Shown in pieces: positions 1 through 5,044 of a stretch of 37,215 bases of DNA. Location: the IMG/VR virus record IMGVR_UViG_2541047928_000009, positions 1-37,215 of that record. One strand, written 5' to 3'. The notes beneath the pieces were generated by a model. That model had not been told where the DNA came from. It saw nothing but the letters and a program-made list of their open reading frames with translations, and made no database searches. The translations under genes and the position numbers were made by a program. The stretch is from a virus. Taxonomy: Duplodnaviria > Heunggongvirae > Uroviricota > Caudoviricetes. Within the stretch, counting starts at the first letter, position 1. Each line of letters opens with the position of its first letter.

Positions 1-471
1 CTAATAAAACACCCAGTTTTCTGTTTCTTGGTTGTGTCCAAAGTTATATTCAATATCTGGTGTTGATGTATCAATATTCTTCATCCCATCAACAAGAGTT
101 GATACAACAGCCAAATCTTGTTTGATTCTCATTAAATGGTATTTCTTCCGGCGCAATAAACTCTCAATGGCAAGTTTCTTCGTTGGGAATGCAAAAGATC
201 TTTCTGCATTTTTTGCTACTTTCTTAATTGCATATCTATTTCTCCTTTGTTTCCATTCCTGTAACCACTGATTTGGTGCTGGTTTAAAATTAACAATCCA
301 ATGCGCAGGAACCAACCATGCATAATGCTCTGTCTGATGAAAAGCTATATATTGAAGTGCGAATATTTTTATCCCATCTTCTTCAACTGTCGCCTGGAAT
401 CTCCAGAAAACAGGCATTCCATCATGTTCAGTTTCTGATTCAGGAAAAGGTACGCTCCATGATTTTGTCAT
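1..471 (-). CDS. Hypothetical protein (156 aa) downstream of N in the leftward early operon; function unknown
   Basis: Complete ORF with ATG at 469-471 preceded by a GAGGTGA Shine-Dalgarno on the minus strand; stop at 1-3; AT-rich by eye; no family recognised. Confidence 0.55.
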   Translation of the reverse strand: MTKSWSVPFPESETEHDGMPVFWRFQATVEEDGIKIFALQYIAFHQTEHYAWLVPAHWIVNFKPAPNQWLQEWKQRRNRYAIKKVAKNAERSFAFPTKKLAIESLLRRKKYHLMRIKQDLAVVSTLVDGMKNIDTSTPDIEYNFGHNQETENWVFY

Positions 472-529
472 ATCTCACCTCAAATAAGTGGTTTGCTGCC
501 TAATTTCATTTTCTGGCGACCAACACAAG

Positions 530-802
530 TCATCTCGCCGTCAGTTGTTTTGATTTCCGGTATCCTGCTGCGTAAATGGCTACGTTTGGAAGACAAGTTG
601 AACCTTCATATTTTCTGGTCAACGTTGTCAGAGTTATAACTTCTGCTCTCATTGCTGGTTTGCGCTTGCATTGCAAGACCACTCGTGAAGGGGTTGGCCT
701 GTGTAGCTTGTCGGAGCTGATCGCCTCCTGACTTTGCAGATTTGCGCGACGAGCTCTACGGCGAGAAGCTGCGGTGCCTTTAAATTCTGTTTTTCTGGAC
801 AT
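530..802 (-). CDS. N: N-type transcription antiterminator (90 aa), phage 21 / P22 gene 24-like
   Basis: Arg-rich motif near the N-terminus (GTAASRRRARRANL) and C-terminus ...VAIYAAGYRKSKQLTAR resembling the P22 gene 24 protein end as I recall it; GGGAGGA RBS upstream of the internal ATG at 800-802; sits left of the nutL candidate. Confidence 0.7.
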   Translation of the reverse strand: MSRKTEFKGTAASRRRARRANLQSQEAISSDKLHRPTPSRVVLQCKRKPAMRAEVITLTTLTRKYEGSTCLPNVAIYAAGYRKSKQLTAR

Positions 803-900
803 GGATTCCTCCCGAATAAACTTTGGCGATGCAATCTCGAAGCTCCTCCTGAGACGGTTGCTTCGGCATTGCATCCCACAGCTTATGTGGTTGGGTGATC

Positions 901-946
901 TGGCTTTTCAGCCACGTAGTCGAGAGTCGACGTTGTTTAAAGAGCC
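901..946 (-). promoter_or_regulatory. Candidate nutL: boxA-like GCTCTTTAA (minus strand, plus 937-945) followed about 22 nt later by a boxB-like hairpin UGGCU-GAAA-AGCCA (plus 901-914)
   Basis: Read on the minus strand; same architecture and spacing as the nutR candidate at 3582-3627; located between the presumed pL and N. Confidence 0.5.
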
Positions 947-959
947 TGCCAGTCTGTTC

Positions 960-1200
960 CATTTGGCTTCCAGCGTCCTGCTGACGGTTAAATAGTACGA
1001 TATGTACTTTACAAGATCAATACAATTTGTTGTAAGTTGGCGTGGTTTTTTATAACGCTTTGTATTTAATAGTGTTGTTTTTTAGCGTGGATGTATTGCC
1101 TCGGCGATGTAAGGAGAGATCAGAATTGCGTGGTTTAGTGGGTTGCATCTATTTATTTTTCAATAAATATAATTGGTTATGTGTTTTTAGGTGGGCGAAC
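960..1200 (-). promoter_or_regulatory. Putative pL / OL operator-promoter region (AT-rich non-coding stretch upstream of nutL and N)
   Basis: Position relative to N and cI as in lambda; contains GTACTTT...AATACAA-type motifs that echo the OR region; exact operators not resolved. Confidence 0.3.
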
Positions 1201-1206
1201 GTGAGG

Positions 1207-1233
1207 CAAAGAAAACCCGGCGCTGAGGCCGGG
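1207..1233 (-). terminator. Rho-independent terminator closing the cI / orf185 / orf250 leftward transcript
   Basis: Hairpin CCCGGC-(6 nt loop)-GCCGGG at 1216-1233 followed on the minus strand by a TTTTCTTTG run; starts 5 nt past the stop of the 250 aa ORF. Confidence 0.6.
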
Positions 1234-1238
1234 TTGTA

Positions 1239-1991
1239 TTATGCTGCAAGTCTCTTAACCCAAGTCTCTCTTTTGGAGAATGGTAGAACTTGGCTTGATT
1301 CATGGAAGAGTAAGGAGAGTTGTTGCATTTGATCACCAATTGCTTCGCTGTCTATAACAACAAATCTGTTGTTATACTCCTCACTTGAAGCTTTAAGATC
1401 AATTAGTTTCCCAAGCAATGAGTAAGCACTATTCCAGCTTCCTCCGTGTTTCACGCTTGATGTAAAAACGTATTTAGGTATGTCGGTTTTTATTGTTACA
1501 GGGACGGTAATTTGATGTCCACTCAAGCCATATACGTTTTCACGAAGAGAAAGTGCGTCTCTAAGCTCTGTGTGATATAGATAATCAATAACCATACTTT
1601 CAAACTTTTCAGCTTGAACTGGCTGATACCAGTCTAACGACAAAGTTGATGCGAGTATACCAGCTCTAATTATGTTCGATGTAATCGCACCGACATCCTT
1701 TTCTGTTGCCCAAGCAATGATTTCTCCTCGAGCATTGAGTTCTGCGCCTTCTTTAAGCAGTAATTGTCGTATCTCATCAAGTCGTTTTTTGGTAAGCGAG
1801 ATCCCTCTTGCCTCCATATTCATTAAGGCATCGCATCTGTCACTAACTAAATACCTACCATTGACTTCACGGATAAAGGCACCGACATGCTCTCCATCAT
1901 CACAGTAAGTGAATGGACTGATAATTCTCAAGGTCTTGCCTATTGGATGGCATTCGAAACCTAGTTGTGAGATCACTGTTGAGCACATCAT
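1239..1991 (-). CDS. Hypothetical protein (250 aa), distal gene of a two-gene cassette in the rexAB-equivalent position; candidate superinfection-exclusion/defence component
   Basis: ATG at 1989-1991 overlaps the upstream stop (ATGA coupling); AT-rich by eye; ends just before the intrinsic terminator; no obvious transmembrane segment or recognised motif. Confidence 0.6.
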   Translation of the reverse strand: MMCSTVISQLGFECHPIGKTLRIISPFTYCDDGEHVGAFIREVNGRYLVSDRCDALMNMEARGISLTKKRLDEIRQLLLKEGAELNARGEIIAWATEKDVGAITSNIIRAGILASTLSLDWYQPVQAEKFESMVIDYLYHTELRDALSLRENVYGLSGHQITVPVTIKTDIPKYVFTSSVKHGGSWNSAYSLLGKLIDLKASSEEYNNRFVVIDSEAIGDQMQQLSLLFHESSQVLPFSKRETWVKRLAA

Positions 1992-2545
1992 ATTCCAAAC
2001 CCCATTTGCCCCGACTCATCTTCAAGCGGTAAAGGTATTCTCCCAGAGTAAGTTATGTTCAGATGTTTACAGAAGTAATTCCAATACCCTACCAGGTCAT
2101 CTGGGTTTATGTCATCTTCGATTGGAAACGCTATTCTATCACTATAGTATCCAGCTTCTTCATAGTATACATGGTAGTGAGCACCGTAAATGATATCTTG
2201 GTACTTCGGATGATCGACCTTGTAACTATTCGTGTGTTTGTCAAAGTGATAGGTATCTACCGCGAAAACCCTCTTGTTATGATAGAAAGCAATAATATTT
2301 ATTTTAGGGTAAGAAATCGGGTCATCAGGTTCTGAATCCTGATCTGGTTTCCATTTCAGTTCAAACTTTAGCCCTTGTATAGGTATACAATCCTCATCCA
2401 AGGGGATGATATGGGCTTGTAGCCACATATCAGAGCGACTTGGTTTCTGTTTCCATTTAACGCCAGAAAAGTTAACTATTTTTTTACAATAAAGTACTTT
2501 ATCAACTTCTACTTGGCTTGGCTGATAATCATCTATTTTTGCCAA
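1988..2545 (-). CDS. Hypothetical protein (185 aa, or about 146 aa from the internal ATG), proximal gene of the two-gene cassette downstream of cI
   Basis: ORF begins 40 bp after the cI stop; the first codon at 2543-2545 is TTG so the true start is uncertain; aromatic/acidic-rich, no obvious transmembrane segment; not RexA/RexB-like by length or composition. Confidence 0.5.
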   Translation of the reverse strand: MAKIDDYQPSQVEVDKVLYCKKIVNFSGVKWKQKPSRSDMWLQAHIIPLDEDCIPIQGLKFELKWKPDQDSEPDDPISYPKINIIAFYHNKRVFAVDTYHFDKHTNSYKVDHPKYQDIIYGAHYHVYYEEAGYYSDRIAFPIEDDINPDDLVGYWNYFCKHLNITYSGRIPLPLEDESGQMGFGI

Positions 2546-2584
2546 TGTTTACCGCCCTGTAAATTGTAGATAAAAGTGGTTTCA

Positions 2585-3244
2585 TCACCCAAACGTCTCT
2601 TCAGGCCATTGGCTGGCGATAACTTTCCCCACAACGGAACAACTCTCATTGCATGGGATCATTGGGTATTGTGGGTTTAGTGGCTGTAGAAACACCTGAC
2701 CGCTATCCCTGATCAGTTTCTTGAAGGTAAATTCATCACCACCAAGTCTGGCTATGCAGAAATCGCCGGGCTCAACAGCTTGCTCAGGGTCAACCAGAAT
2801 TAACATCCCGTCAGGAAAGCTGGGTTTGGAACCTGTTGGTGCGGTCATTGAGTTACCTTCAACCTCAAGCCAGAATGCAGAGTCACTGGCTTTTTTGGTT
2901 GTGCTTACCAATCTCTCCGCATCGCCTTTGGTAAAGGTTCTGAGTTCTGGAGAGAACATCCCAGCCTGAACATGAGAAAAAACAGGGTACTCATATTGTT
3001 TTTTAACTGGGGCCGATGAGTATTCGCCAACAGGTGAAAATGTCCCGTCGTGGTTGAATGATATGTTATCAATACCAAGGTATTTAAACACCACACCAAT
3101 ATCACTAAGAGATGGATGACGAGATCCGCGCAACCAGTGTCCAATCCCACCCTGCGTCATACCTAGCTCTTCGGCTAACTTCTCTTGAGTTATGCCGAGC
3201 TCTTTCATTCTGGATCTAGCCAGTTCATACCATTTCATTTTCAT
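2585..3244 (-). CDS. cI: CI prophage repressor (HTH plus LexA/S24-like autocleavage domain); the C-terminal domain reads as lambda cI, the N-terminal DNA-binding domain does not
   Basis: C-terminal ~140 aa ([26 protein letters not shown]...[12 protein letters not shown]) matches lambda cI as I recall it; N-terminus [11 protein letters not shown]...[14 protein letters not shown] is a different HTH; start taken at the ATG at 3242-3244, alternative ATG at 3236-3238. Confidence 0.85.
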
Positions 3245-3355
3245 GTCCTTATTATTACGCTCTGTACTGGAACCATCCATGCACAATGTGTATTTTTACT
3301 TGTATTCGCAAAGTACATATTGTATTTTTTTATTCGTGTTTACTATGGAGGGCAT
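3245..3355. promoter_or_regulatory. Divergent immunity control region (OR operators, pRM and pR) between cI and cro
   Basis: 111 bp AT-rich intergenic region between divergent repressor genes; contains near-palindromic TACTTGTATTCGCAAAGTAC and TGTATTTTT repeats; individual operators not resolved. Confidence 0.5.
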
Positions 3356-3571
3356 ATGAGCAACCTACGAAAATATCGAGAGTCACTGAATATCTCTCAA
3401 ACAACACTTGCTAAGGCAGTTGGATGCACACAGGGAGCTATCGGACATTGGGAATCTGGTCGTCGCTTCCCAGACCTTAAAACATGCCGTGCTCTTGTTG
3501 CGTGCCTAAACAAGTTAGGCGCAAAAGTCAGTCTTGATGACGTGTTCCCGCCGGAACACAAAGCCGCTTAA
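3356..3571 (+). CDS. cro: Cro-like HTH repressor (71 aa)
   Basis: ATG at 3356 with a GGAGGG RBS; HTH with recognition-helix motif TQGAIGHW closely resembling the cI motif TQGGIGHW; divergent from cI. Confidence 0.75.
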   Translation: MSNLRKYRESLNISQTTLAKAVGCTQGAIGHWESGRRFPDLKTCRALVACLNKLGAKVSLDDVFPPEHKAA

Positions 3572-3581
3572 TAAGCGGATC

Positions 3582-3627
3582 CGCTCTTTGTAACAACGGA
3601 CATTCGTCCTACGTCGCTGAAAAGCGA
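3582..3627 (+). promoter_or_regulatory. Candidate nutR: boxA-like CGCTCTTTG (3582-3590) and boxB-like hairpin UCGCU-GAAA-AGCGA (3614-3627)
   Basis: Immediately downstream of cro; boxA consensus-like; same hairpin form and spacing as the nutL candidate. Confidence 0.55.
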
Positions 3628-3712
3628 GTTCCAAGATATCTGACCAACTAAGGCCATATGCGTTTCCACGCATACCTTTCAACTAACTATTCACTATTGG
3701 AAATCTTAAGAA

Positions 3713-4012
3713 ATGGAAAGAACAAGTTACAGCAAACTATCACAGCGTGACGTTGATCGCGCAGAAACAGATTTACTTATCAATCTGTCAGCTATTACCC
3801 AGCGCGGTCTGGCAAAGATGATTGGCTGTCATGAATCGAAGATAAGCAGAACGGACTGGAGATTTATTGCTTCGGTCTTGTGTGCTTTCGGAATGGCATC
3901 AGACATCAGTCCGATTAGCAGGGCTTTTAAGTATGCGCTTGATGGACTCACCAATAAAAAACGCCCGGTGTGCAAGACCGAGCGTTCTGAACAAATCCAG
4001 ATGGAGTTCTGA
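3713..4012 (+). CDS. cII: CII transcriptional activator
   Basis: C-terminus [18 protein letters not shown] matches lambda cII as I recall it; the N-terminal part is divergent. Confidence 0.8.
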
Positions 4013-4034
4013 GGGAATTACTGGATCAATCCAC
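3954..4034 (-). ncRNA. Candidate oop-like antisense RNA overlapping the 3' end of cII
   Basis: Minus-strand hairpin CGCUCGG...CCGGGCG followed by UUUUUUAUU (plus 3954-3984), in the position of the lambda oop terminator; possible -10 CATAAT on the minus strand near plus 4042-4047; TSS not determined. Confidence 0.35.
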
Positions 4035-4044
4035 AGGAGTAATT

Positions 4045-4191
4045 ATGACAAAACAACTCAGTCCTTACCAGGACAAAATTCACAAACACATACTACGTGA
4101 TCGCTTCCTGTCCAGCTTCAAGCAGTCTGGTCGATTCCGGGCTGAGTTGGAAAAAGTGAAGCTGATGCAGAAGGAGAAAGGTCATGAGTAA
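4045..4191 (+). CDS. Small hypothetical ORF (48 aa) between cII and O
   Basis: ATG at 4045 with a CAGGAGT RBS; its stop overlaps the O start; too short for the supplied ORF track; may not be expressed. Confidence 0.3.
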
Positions 4192-5044
4192 TCTTGCAAC
4201 CGTAACACATTTAAGGCCTTCACAACGGCCTGTGGAGCGTCGTGTGGCAGAAGTTGAAGATGGTTATACCCGTCTTGCAAATGCCCTGTATGAAGAGCTT
4301 ATCGGCGCAGATTTAACAAAAAATCAGAGTAAGGTTGCCCACGCCATATGCCGTAAAACATACGGATACGGTAAAAAGATGGATCGCATCTCTGATAGTC
4401 AGTTAGCTCAAATTACCAGGCTGCCAAGACAGAAGGTAAACAAGGCCAAGAATGAGCTTATCGCGATGAAGGTAATCCTTCGCGAAGGCCAGCAAATCGG
4501 GCCTAACAAGAACATCGAGGAATGGCAAATCGAAGGGTGTCACTACTCTGGTGATAATGTCACTGCATTGGTGACAAAAAGTGTCACCAAAACGGTGACA
4601 GCGCTGTCACCAAAACAGGGACACACAAAAGAAACTATTACAAAAGAAAAAAGAAATAATAAAAACACTATGTCCGAAAGTGTTCGGACGGAGTGTGAAA
4701 AATCATCTGACCGTCACGAAGAAACCGACAAGGCATTCGAGGAAATATTCTGGTGTGCAGGCATGCGGAAAGCCGGGAAAAAAAACGCAGCTTCGGCATT
4801 CAGAACACAGTTCAGGGAATGGCGTAAAACTACCAGGGGTACGGCAAGCGAGTTTGCCACGATGCTGGCAGAAGACATCGCATGCAGGAATGGTAAGCAG
4901 TTCGGATTCGACAGGTTGTTACCATCGAGCTACCTGAACGGTCAGCGCTGGAACGACGAGAAGCCAGAAACTATTCAACCACAATCCAAACCATCATCCG
5001 CAATCACCGTATCGAAAACTGGCTACGTGTTTTTCGACAGGTGA
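4184..5044 (+). CDS. O: Replication initiation protein O (lambda O-like N-terminal iteron-binding domain)
   Basis: N-terminal region [14 protein letters not shown]...[33 protein letters not shown] resembles lambda O; ori iterons lie inside the gene. Confidence 0.8.
4536..4670. repeat. Origin of replication: three or four inverted-repeat iterons (GGTGACA...TGTCACC type) followed by an AT-rich segment, embedded in the O gene
   Basis: Directly visible: TGTCAC at 4538, GGTGATAATGTCAC at about 4550, GGTGACAAAAAGTGTCACC at about 4570-4588, GGTGACAGCGCTGTCACC at about 4594-4611, then an AT-rich stretch 4625-4670; same architecture as lambda ori. Confidence 0.7.

Follow-up and report, generated by a model that had tools for sequence, protein, structure and literature searches.

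Background

The N/nut antitermination system controls delayed-early expression and, indirectly, Q and the late and Shiga toxin (Stx) genes in lambdoid prophages. In lambda, a nut site has boxA, a spacer and boxB, the last being a hairpin with a GNRA-type fold that is closed by a U-A pair and has a cognate arginine-rich N protein (PMC2724277, PMC12027372). In H-19B, two consecutive hairpins have been targeted with antisense oligonucleotides by the Sen laboratory, RS663 being directed against the "spacer" (first hairpin) and RS664 against "boxB" (second hairpin) (PMC3526286), and the H-19B nutR/tR1 region is a characterised Rho-dependent terminator (PMC1950744, PMC3526286). In VT2-Sakai (Sp5; AP000422.1) the corresponding sites are labelled "putative N-utilization leftward" and "putative N-utilization rightward". 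Here we describe two sites of this kind in a virus of the Caudoviricetes, IMG/VR record IMGVR_UViG_2541047928_000009; "the window" is the whole stretch of 37,215 nucleotides (nt) that was analysed. A preliminary description had proposed that the sites are nutL and nutR, and this identity is supported by their position, conservation and covariation, by a near-identical annotated relative and by homology to nutR of H-19B. They very probably are nutL and nutR of a lambdoid phage with an N/nut system of the VT2-Sakai type.

Much of this is already known, since the sites are annotated as putative in VT2-Sakai and are homologous to sites studied experimentally in H-19B; they are ordinary and functional-looking. 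What is added here is the correct boundaries of boxB, a hairpin within the spacer that explains its length, and a pairing without exceptions between a short arginine-rich motif in N and a GNRA tetraloop in boxB.

Structure of the two nut sites

The two sites flank the lambdoid cI/cro immunity region, with nutL downstream of pL and nutR downstream of cro. In nutR, on the plus strand, boxA at 3582-3590 (CGCTCTTTG; RNA CGCUCUUUG) starts where the rightward feature of VT2-Sakai starts, and is followed by a spacer of 23 nt (3591-3613) and by boxB at 3614-3627 (UCGCU-GAAA-AGCGA; DNA TCGCT-GAAA-AGCGA). In nutL, on the minus strand, boxA at 937-945 (GCTCTTTAA; RNA GCUCUUUAA) is followed by a spacer of 22 nt (936-915) and by boxB at 901-914 (UGGCU-GAAA-AGCCA; DNA TGGCT-GAAA-AGCCA), which has a stem of 5 base pairs (bp) and a GNRA tetraloop. 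Each spacer contains a second small hairpin. The one in nutR, GGAC-AUUC-GUCC (3598-3609, plus strand), lies between ACAAC (3593-3597) and UACG (3610-3613), and the one in nutL, GUCGA-CUC-UCGAC (919-931, minus strand), lies between ACAAC (936-932) and UACG (918-915). The full modules are GCUCUUUAA-ACAAC-(GUCGA CUC UCGAC)-UACG-(UGGCU GAAA AGCCA) for nutL and CGCUCUUUG-UAACAAC-(GGAC AUUC GUCC)-UACG-(UCGCU GAAA AGCGA) for nutR.

The hairpin inside the spacer accounts for the long distance between boxA and boxB. Neely and Friedman are said to have named this element the "reducer" in 2000 and to have described it as shortening the effective boxA-boxB distance. With the spacer hairpin closed, the linear distance is 9 nt in nutL and 11 nt in nutR, whereas the spacers of lambda are 8 and 9 nt long and linear (PMC2724277).

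The boxA core of nutL, GCUCUUUA, agrees with the boxA consensus of rrn, UGCUCUUUA, and ACAAC comes directly after boxA, which is also the case in rrn (reference boxA sequences were taken from PMC2724277). The annotated boxA-L of phage 21 has the same sequence as boxA of nutL in the window, whereas the boxA of lambda, CGCUCUUA, lacks the extra U. The pattern GCTCTTTN{18,30}GCTGAAAAGC has two matches in the 37-kb window and none in 100 dinucleotide-preserving shuffles. The extended module ACAAYG-N8-20-TACGNNGCTG likewise matches only nutL and nutR, with no match in the shuffles, and the 10-mer GCTGMAAAGC of the boxB core occurs within the window only at these two sites (0.25 expected).

The boxA motifs, GAAA hairpins and spacers of 22 and 23 nt in the preliminary description are correct base for base, and a boxA of the CGCUCUU(U)A-like kind does lie upstream of boxB at both sites. 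Its spacer lengths are right, but the hairpin within each spacer had been overlooked. The sites had been placed around the immunity region, in agreement with the gene map, and nutL had been expected inside the pL transcript; it lies some 40 nt beyond the inferred start of pL transcription.

Comparison with VT2-Sakai and H-19B

Region 500-4100 of the window is 99.5% identical to coliphages ev207, ev017 and PhiR57_1. Identity to VT2-Sakai, the Stx1-converting phage and Stx2 II is about 95.5% in the N, cI, cro and cII parts, and these phages share their cI/cro/cII type with the window. In VT2-Sakai both nut sites, from boxA through boxB, are identical to those of the window in the stretches read. 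The annotated features start at the same boxA positions as the sites in the window, and on the 3' side they break off within the GAAA loop, which makes their boundaries imprecise. Between cI and pL, VT2-Sakai has H0092/H0093 whereas the window has a DUF1828/PDC-M24-like pair, and because of these different genes VT2-Sakai covers only 63% of the query.

The nutR of H-19B, rebuilt from the boxA, spacer and boxB oligonucleotides of PMC3526286, is CATAAGTAACACCGCTATTTTCACAATGGACATTCGTCCTACGTCGCTGACAAAGCGAGTCCCAATATATCTGACCAACTAAGG and is found verbatim in 14 loci of the 933W type. From the spacer hairpin through boxB this experimentally used site is identical to nutR of the window except for the loop, which is GACAA in H-19B and GAAA in the window. 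The spacer hairpin is thus the same as the "spacer" targeted by RS663, and the boxB targeted by RS664 (UCGCU-GACAA-AGCGA) has the same stem, the loop of the window being one C shorter. The boxA region differs, with CGCUCUUUG-UAACAAC in the window and CGCUAUUUU-CACAAU in H-19B, and there are two mismatches in the downstream flank. H-19B, 933W and HK97, whose nut sites are the subject of Neely and Friedman 2000 (Mol Microbiol 38:1074; ref 31 of PMC3526286), have a common layout with the window, (boxA)-ACAAYG-spacer hairpin-UACG-boxB. The presence of GAAA rather than GACAA at both sites makes the window a distinct loop/motif subclass of the H-19B-type architecture. The N proteins differ in part: the C-terminal region of the H-19B-type N is homologous to that of the window, whereas the N of the window lacks a 7-residue motif segment and a central block of about 30 residues.

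A consensus boxA is present at both sites in the window, whereas nutL of 933W and HK97 has no boxA and nutR of H-19B has CGCUAUUUU. This sequence difference hints that boxA may be used here. The N of H-19B is reportedly NusB- and boxA-independent, according to the work of Neely and Friedman in 2000. In 933W, HK97 and most prophages with a 120-amino-acid N, boxA of nutL is replaced by a conserved hairpin, UCACC-AGGRC-GGUGA (4780-4810, plus strand, in loci L085 and L086). Locus L177 has this hairpin followed only by a degenerate boxA-like GTTCTTTAC. In prophages in which nutL lacks boxA, many of the nutR boxA sequences are degenerate as well, for example CACCACUC.

The N protein and the boxB loop

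The gene adjacent to nutL (530-802, minus strand; 90 amino acids; Pfam PF25694 N_peptide, E 8e-32) codes for a cognate N that carries an arginine-rich motif in its N-terminal part. The motif, which the preliminary description had noted, is found at residues 8-22 (KGTAASRRRARRANL) and includes the run SRRRARR. The protein is 98.9% identical to the annotated N of Stx phages of the VT2-Sakai type. It shows 40% identity to gp24 of P22 along its whole length including the arginine-rich motif (E 1e-12), and the motif itself is 54% identical over 28 amino acids to that of phage 21 N (E 9e-5; KGTAASRRRARRANL and KGTAKSRYKARRAEL). The phage 21 sequence used is 100% identical to OL657228.1. A PDB sequence search with N gave no match at E up to 10.

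Homologues of N and their flanks were gathered from phage records, IMG/VR and GTDB genomes, and N, nutL and nutR were extracted from 173 loci. The nut module is carried by phages with the N type of the window; by Shigella phage 75/02 Stx, in which N is 84% identical; by 933W, Stx2 phage I and HK97 with their 127-amino-acid N; and by prophages of Salmonella, Klebsiella, Enterobacter, Kluyvera and Citrobacter with a 120-amino-acid N. The preliminary description had treated conservation of the hairpins in related phages as decisive, and they are kept in every relative with the N type of the window. The flanks ACAAYG and UACG are found at both sites in the window and vary little or not at all among the distinct cores that were recovered, 29 for nutL and 25 for nutR; since the extraction pattern itself required A[CA]AA[CT]G and TA[CT]G, this does not extend to invariance across all relatives.

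The type of boxB loop follows the motif in N. Among the 173 loci, the short motif RRRxxR[AS]x[LVM]Q is always found with a GAAA or GCAA tetraloop (131 nutL and 115 nutR loci, 51 distinct N proteins), and a motif that is seven residues longer, RRRERLKAKALANGV, is found with loops of the GACAA type, including a variant CGUCAAC in some nutL sites, without a single exception. The short motif is present on N bodies of 90 and of 120 amino acids alike. In Salmonella phages there are nutR contexts that are otherwise identical and in which only the loop region differs, following the N motif. In phages with an N of the window type, the nutR module is found behind three or more unrelated cro 3' ends, and so travels with N specificity and not with immunity.

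A broader rule, in which the N motif tracks the loop type across all N families, was rejected because the P22 motif resembles that of the window yet pairs with GACAA, which confines the rule to the H-19B-type nut family. In BLAST comparisons the N of H-19B aligns with P22 gp24 at the C-terminus only, and the motifs do not align. Further loop forms were seen in phages of the type of Salmonella phage SPN9CC (L088, about 4880-4900, plus strand), where nutL is GCUC-CGUCAAC-GAGC whereas nutR is UCGCU-GACAA-GGCGA with a U.G closing pair, and in nutR of P22 (L187), which is CCGC-CGACAAC-GCGG. Together they suggest that a single N tolerates a C/C-flanked GNCAA loop. N homologues of the enterobacterial type also turned up on tiny contigs assigned to Xanthomonas pisi (L172, 394 nt) and to a metagenome-assembled genome of Segatella copri (L179 and L185), which most likely represent contamination or mis-binning and not real hosts.

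RNA folding and covariation

When pieces of 22 nt were folded alone, each boxB formed a hairpin with a 5-bp stem and a GAAA loop, with -6.7 kcal/mol (z-score -2.3) and -7.1 kcal/mol (z-score -3.7). When RNAalifold was given 10 diverse sequences of nutL and nutR and no structure, its prediction consisted of precisely the spacer hairpin and boxB. In this alignment all 90 cells are paired, compensatory changes are found at five of the nine pairs, and the covariation score is 0.647 compared with 0.133 in shuffles (0 of 500); sliding the partners by one to three columns gives a score of at most 0.109.

The spacer helix of nutR is 100% paired across 25 distinct relatives, which none of 500 shuffles reaches, with AU, CG, GC and GU at pair 3 and CG and AU at pair 4; within this helix a G.U occurs once. 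The spacer stems of nutL have been swapped wholesale among lineages (GUCGA/UCGAC, GAUUC/GAAUC, GAUUCC/GGAAUC and GGUGA/UCACC); they cannot be aligned column by column and are described here as stem replacements. In boxB the loop and the inner G-C, C-G and U-A pairs are conserved among relatives, and the two outer pairs vary (U-A, C-G, A-U and G-C at one, G-C, C-G and A-U at the other). Alignments made with MAFFT that mixed tetraloop and pentaloop rows had the 3' arm out of register, so the counts of boxB pairs were made on RNAalifold alignments and on alignments restricted to tetraloop sequences.

Wherever a pair of the boxB stem is not Watson-Crick, it is G.U on the transcribed strand, and this asymmetry points to RNA hairpins rather than DNA palindromes. 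The isolated fold, RNAalifold, the covariation and the G.U asymmetry all support boxB as an RNA element with a GNRA-type loop closed by a U-A pair.

Comparison with phage 21, P22 and lambda

The long spacer had been attributed in the preliminary description to an N system like that of phage 21 or P22. The comparison does not bear this out: in phage 21 the two spacers measure 12 and 14 nt, with no spacer hairpin of the window kind, and that of nutL in P22 measures about 10 nt, with no ACAACG...UACG spacer hairpin. Spacers of 10-14 nt mean that the long spacer is not a trait of these phages. The description of N as "phage 21/P22-like" fits the protein, which resembles P22 gp24 and has a motif like that of phage 21, but not the nut RNA module, which is of the H-19B type.

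The boxB hairpins of phage 21 have stems of 7 and 6 bp and a CUAACC hexaloop, in contrast to 5 bp and GAAA in the window. Like the loop of the window, that of phage 21 presents a GNRA-like fold of four bases, none of which is extruded (PMC12550061). Outside the arginine-rich motif the N of phage 21 is lambda-like and not P22-like as the N of the window is. The pL leader of phage 21 is near-identical to that of the window through boxA-L, and the sequence of the window departs from it after boxA. This makes nutL a mosaic of a leader and boxA of the phage 21/P22 type with a spacer hairpin and boxB of the H-19B type.

P22 and the window belong to one pL leader family, and both have a boxA of the consensus type. 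The boxB-L of P22, GCGCU-GACAA-AGCGC, has a pentaloop instead of the tetraloop of the window; it folds as GNRA with the C looped out, and the extruded C contacts the N peptide (PMC12550061). In loop and spacer, then, the sites in the window are neither of the phage 21 type nor of the P22 type. The sites follow the same logic and positions as those of lambda, whose loops are the pentaloops GAAAA and GAAGA with an extruded fourth base (GNRNA); the loop of the window has the same fold with no extruded base.

Alternative explanations

The identity of boxB depends on which of the two hairpins N would bind. The VT2-Sakai features run from boxA to the middle of the GAAA loop and fully contain only the first hairpin, as might be expected if the spacer hairpin were the N-binding boxB and the GAAA hairpin something else. 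However, a single N must recognise both sites, and the first hairpins, GUCGA-CUC-UCGAC and GGAC-AUUC-GUCC, are unrelated within one phage, with different stems and different loops, whereas the second hairpin has an identical GAAA loop and identical inner three pairs at nutL and nutR. The loop that co-varies with the N motif is that of the second hairpin alone, and in H-19B it is the second hairpin that the Sen-laboratory oligonucleotides define as "boxB", the first being the "spacer" (PMC3526286). An N-binding first hairpin is therefore highly improbable, and judged from these sequence comparisons the second (GAAA) hairpin is boxB.

A role apart from N, as an N-independent terminator, a Rho-loading element or an RNA-stability element with an incidental likeness to nut, might be suggested by the overlap of the H-19B nutR region with the tR1 Rho utilisation (rut) site, by Rho footprints on the spacer, and by a terminator-like call on the opposite strand that overlaps the nutL spacer dyad. 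No U-run follows either hairpin on the transcribed strand, though, and the module occurs once per early operon at the canonical nut positions. The perfect association between loop and N motif would be inexplicable without N. A nutR that served as both nut and rut would agree with the identification as nut sites and is hence no rival to it. A role apart from N is very unlikely. The probability is next to negligible that the inverted repeats are palindromes acting at the DNA level, as protein-binding sites or operators. In favour of such palindromes, "compensatory" changes are retained in symmetric DNA sites as well, and operators abound in the region; but all departures in the boxB stem are G.U on the transcribed strand (A.C on the other), neither site falls within an operator cluster of the VT2-Sakai annotation, and the stems keep their place in a transcribed module although their sequences are entirely different from lineage to lineage.

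Several observations weigh against the identification as nutL and nutR with the two-hairpin fold. The preliminary description had called for folding of both regions, and although the isolated boxB hairpins form, the 66-nt nut regions folded whole are not significantly better than shuffles (z-scores -1.3 and -1.0). In the minimum free energy (MFE) fold, boxA (GCUCUUU) pairs with the loop and 3' arm of boxB (AAAAGC) and encloses the spacer hairpin; this alternative fold, at 3575-3640 on the plus strand and 890-955 on the minus strand, is found at both nut sites and would mask boxA and boxB. The two-hairpin fold thus depends on co-transcriptional folding or protein binding. The complementarity of boxA and boxB is absent from relatives without boxA, and the alternative pairing is for this reason taken as incidental. 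Covariation in boxB is limited to the two outer pairs, and the common ancestry of the sequences means that significance is overstated by the shuffle controls. The association of motif and loop could reflect a few recombination events and linkage and not many independent events. A search of window positions 1-5000 against Rfam in E-value mode gave chance-level matches only and no nut-like family. Finally, the readthrough experiments belong to the H-19B homologue (PMC3526286, PMC1950744), and the label in VT2-Sakai is only "putative".

Gene context and neighbouring features

The inferred pL promoter lies at 992-1020 on the minus strand, with -35 TTGATC (1020-1015), a 17-nt spacer and -10 TACTAT (997-992). 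It overlaps operator-like repeats AAGTACATATCGTA, and its position matches the "putative major leftward promoter" and operators of VT2-Sakai. The start of the pL transcript is placed at 985 (minus strand), at the G of GTCAGCAGGACGC, which aligns with the phage 21 "transcription start pL" ATCAGCAGGACGC. Between 985 and 937 the leftward strand (GTCAGCAGGACGCTGGAAGCCAAATGGAACAGACTGGCAGGCTCTTTAA) follows the phage 21 leader at almost every base, from the annotated start of that leader through boxA-L. On the transcript so defined boxA-L is at about +41, and nutL lies 40-85 nt downstream of the start, just upstream of N. The pR promoter region is placed at 3300-3328 (plus strand) from the VT2-Sakai annotation (L001 4270-4298, offset 970). 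A simple sigma-70 consensus scan called neither pL nor pR, and the promoters were therefore placed from the annotations of VT2-Sakai and phage 21.

The cI gene (3244-2585, minus strand) encodes a helix-turn-helix (HTH) and a Peptidase_S24 domain, and cro (3356-3571, plus strand) encodes an HTH protein of 71 amino acids; cII is at 3713-4012 and an O-type replication gene at 4184-5044. The nutR site starts 11 nt after the cro stop and lies ahead of a tR1-like region and cII. This tR1-equivalent region (3628-3712, plus strand), between nutR and cII, contains the hairpin UAUGCGU-UUCC-ACGCAUA at 3657-3674. It has only two mismatches to the reconstructed H-19B sequence, which reaches to about 3652, and is near-identical through to cII to the 933W-type locus L085, whose nutR is that of H-19B. 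In VT2-Sakai a "putative rho dependent terminator for pR transcript" is annotated at the matching position. A palindrome, CCGCTTAATAAGCGG (3564-3578), spans the cro stop just before boxA-R and was called terminator-like on the minus strand; it is restricted to the cro allele of the window and is missing from other cro types with the same nutR.

Between boxB-L and the ribosome-binding site of N there is a long hairpin (815-894, minus strand) whose outer pairs involve the Shine-Dalgarno sequence GGGAGG (813-808). Its MFE is -39.3 kcal/mol (z-score -4.1), and none of 200 shuffles is as good. Comparable closed N leaders are found in phage 21 (z-score -4.4), Salmonella phage SI8 (-4.0) and 75/02 Stx (-2.6). 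The hairpin resembles the N leader of lambda, which is processed by RNase III and couples boxB-L to translation of N.

Two overlapping genes (1239-2545, minus strand) are inserted between cI and pL, ahead of the terminator of the cI operon, at the position of rexAB in lambda. They encode a DUF1828 protein of 250 amino acids and a protein of 185 amino acids with a weak match to DUF6978, and the pair matches the PADLOC candidate defence system PDC-M24 (M24B, E 4.7e-10; M24A, E 4.8e-4). The operon of cI and these defence genes ends in a strong intrinsic-terminator-like hairpin at 1214-1235 (minus strand), AACCCGGCCTCAGCGCCGGGTT followed by TTCTTT, which matches the "rho independent terminator for pRM transcript" of VT2-Sakai.

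Implications

On the nascent pL and pR transcripts the consensus-type boxA would be the expected binding site of NusB-NusE. The short single-stranded ACAAC would come next, then the small hairpin that would remove 12-13 nt from the linear spacer, then UACG and boxB. By analogy with lambda and H-19B, the N-terminal arginine-rich motif of the 90-amino-acid N would bind the boxB tetraloop, and NusA would bind N and the spacer in a complex that stays on RNA polymerase. With N, NusA, NusG and NusB/E, RNA polymerase would then read through the Rho-dependent tR1 ahead of cII-O-P and through the leftward terminators.

Apart from loop and motif, the two classes have the nut module in common, and they often occur in one host. 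As a tentative proposal from the comparison of sequences, the short arginine-rich motif and the true GNRA-tetraloop boxB may form a separate class of N specificity, orthogonal to the GACAA/long-motif class of H-19B and 933W. In the searchable literature no description was found of a true GNRA tetraloop paired with a shorter N motif. If the proposal is true, a Stx or other lambdoid prophage of one class would not bring about antitermination in a co-resident prophage of the other class, and the system would be a natural minimal model of an arginine-rich peptide that recognises a GNRA tetraloop with no extruded base.

The module of N and nutL, a very common one in prophages, is of the type carried by the Sakai Stx2 phage, and the N and nutL stretch is covered to at least 80% in 759 of the 5,426 complete E. 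coli genomes. The finding leaves the understanding of how nut sites work unchanged. The true-tetraloop boxB gives annotators of these prophages real boxB boundaries, and it would predict which co-resident prophages can trans-activate each other.

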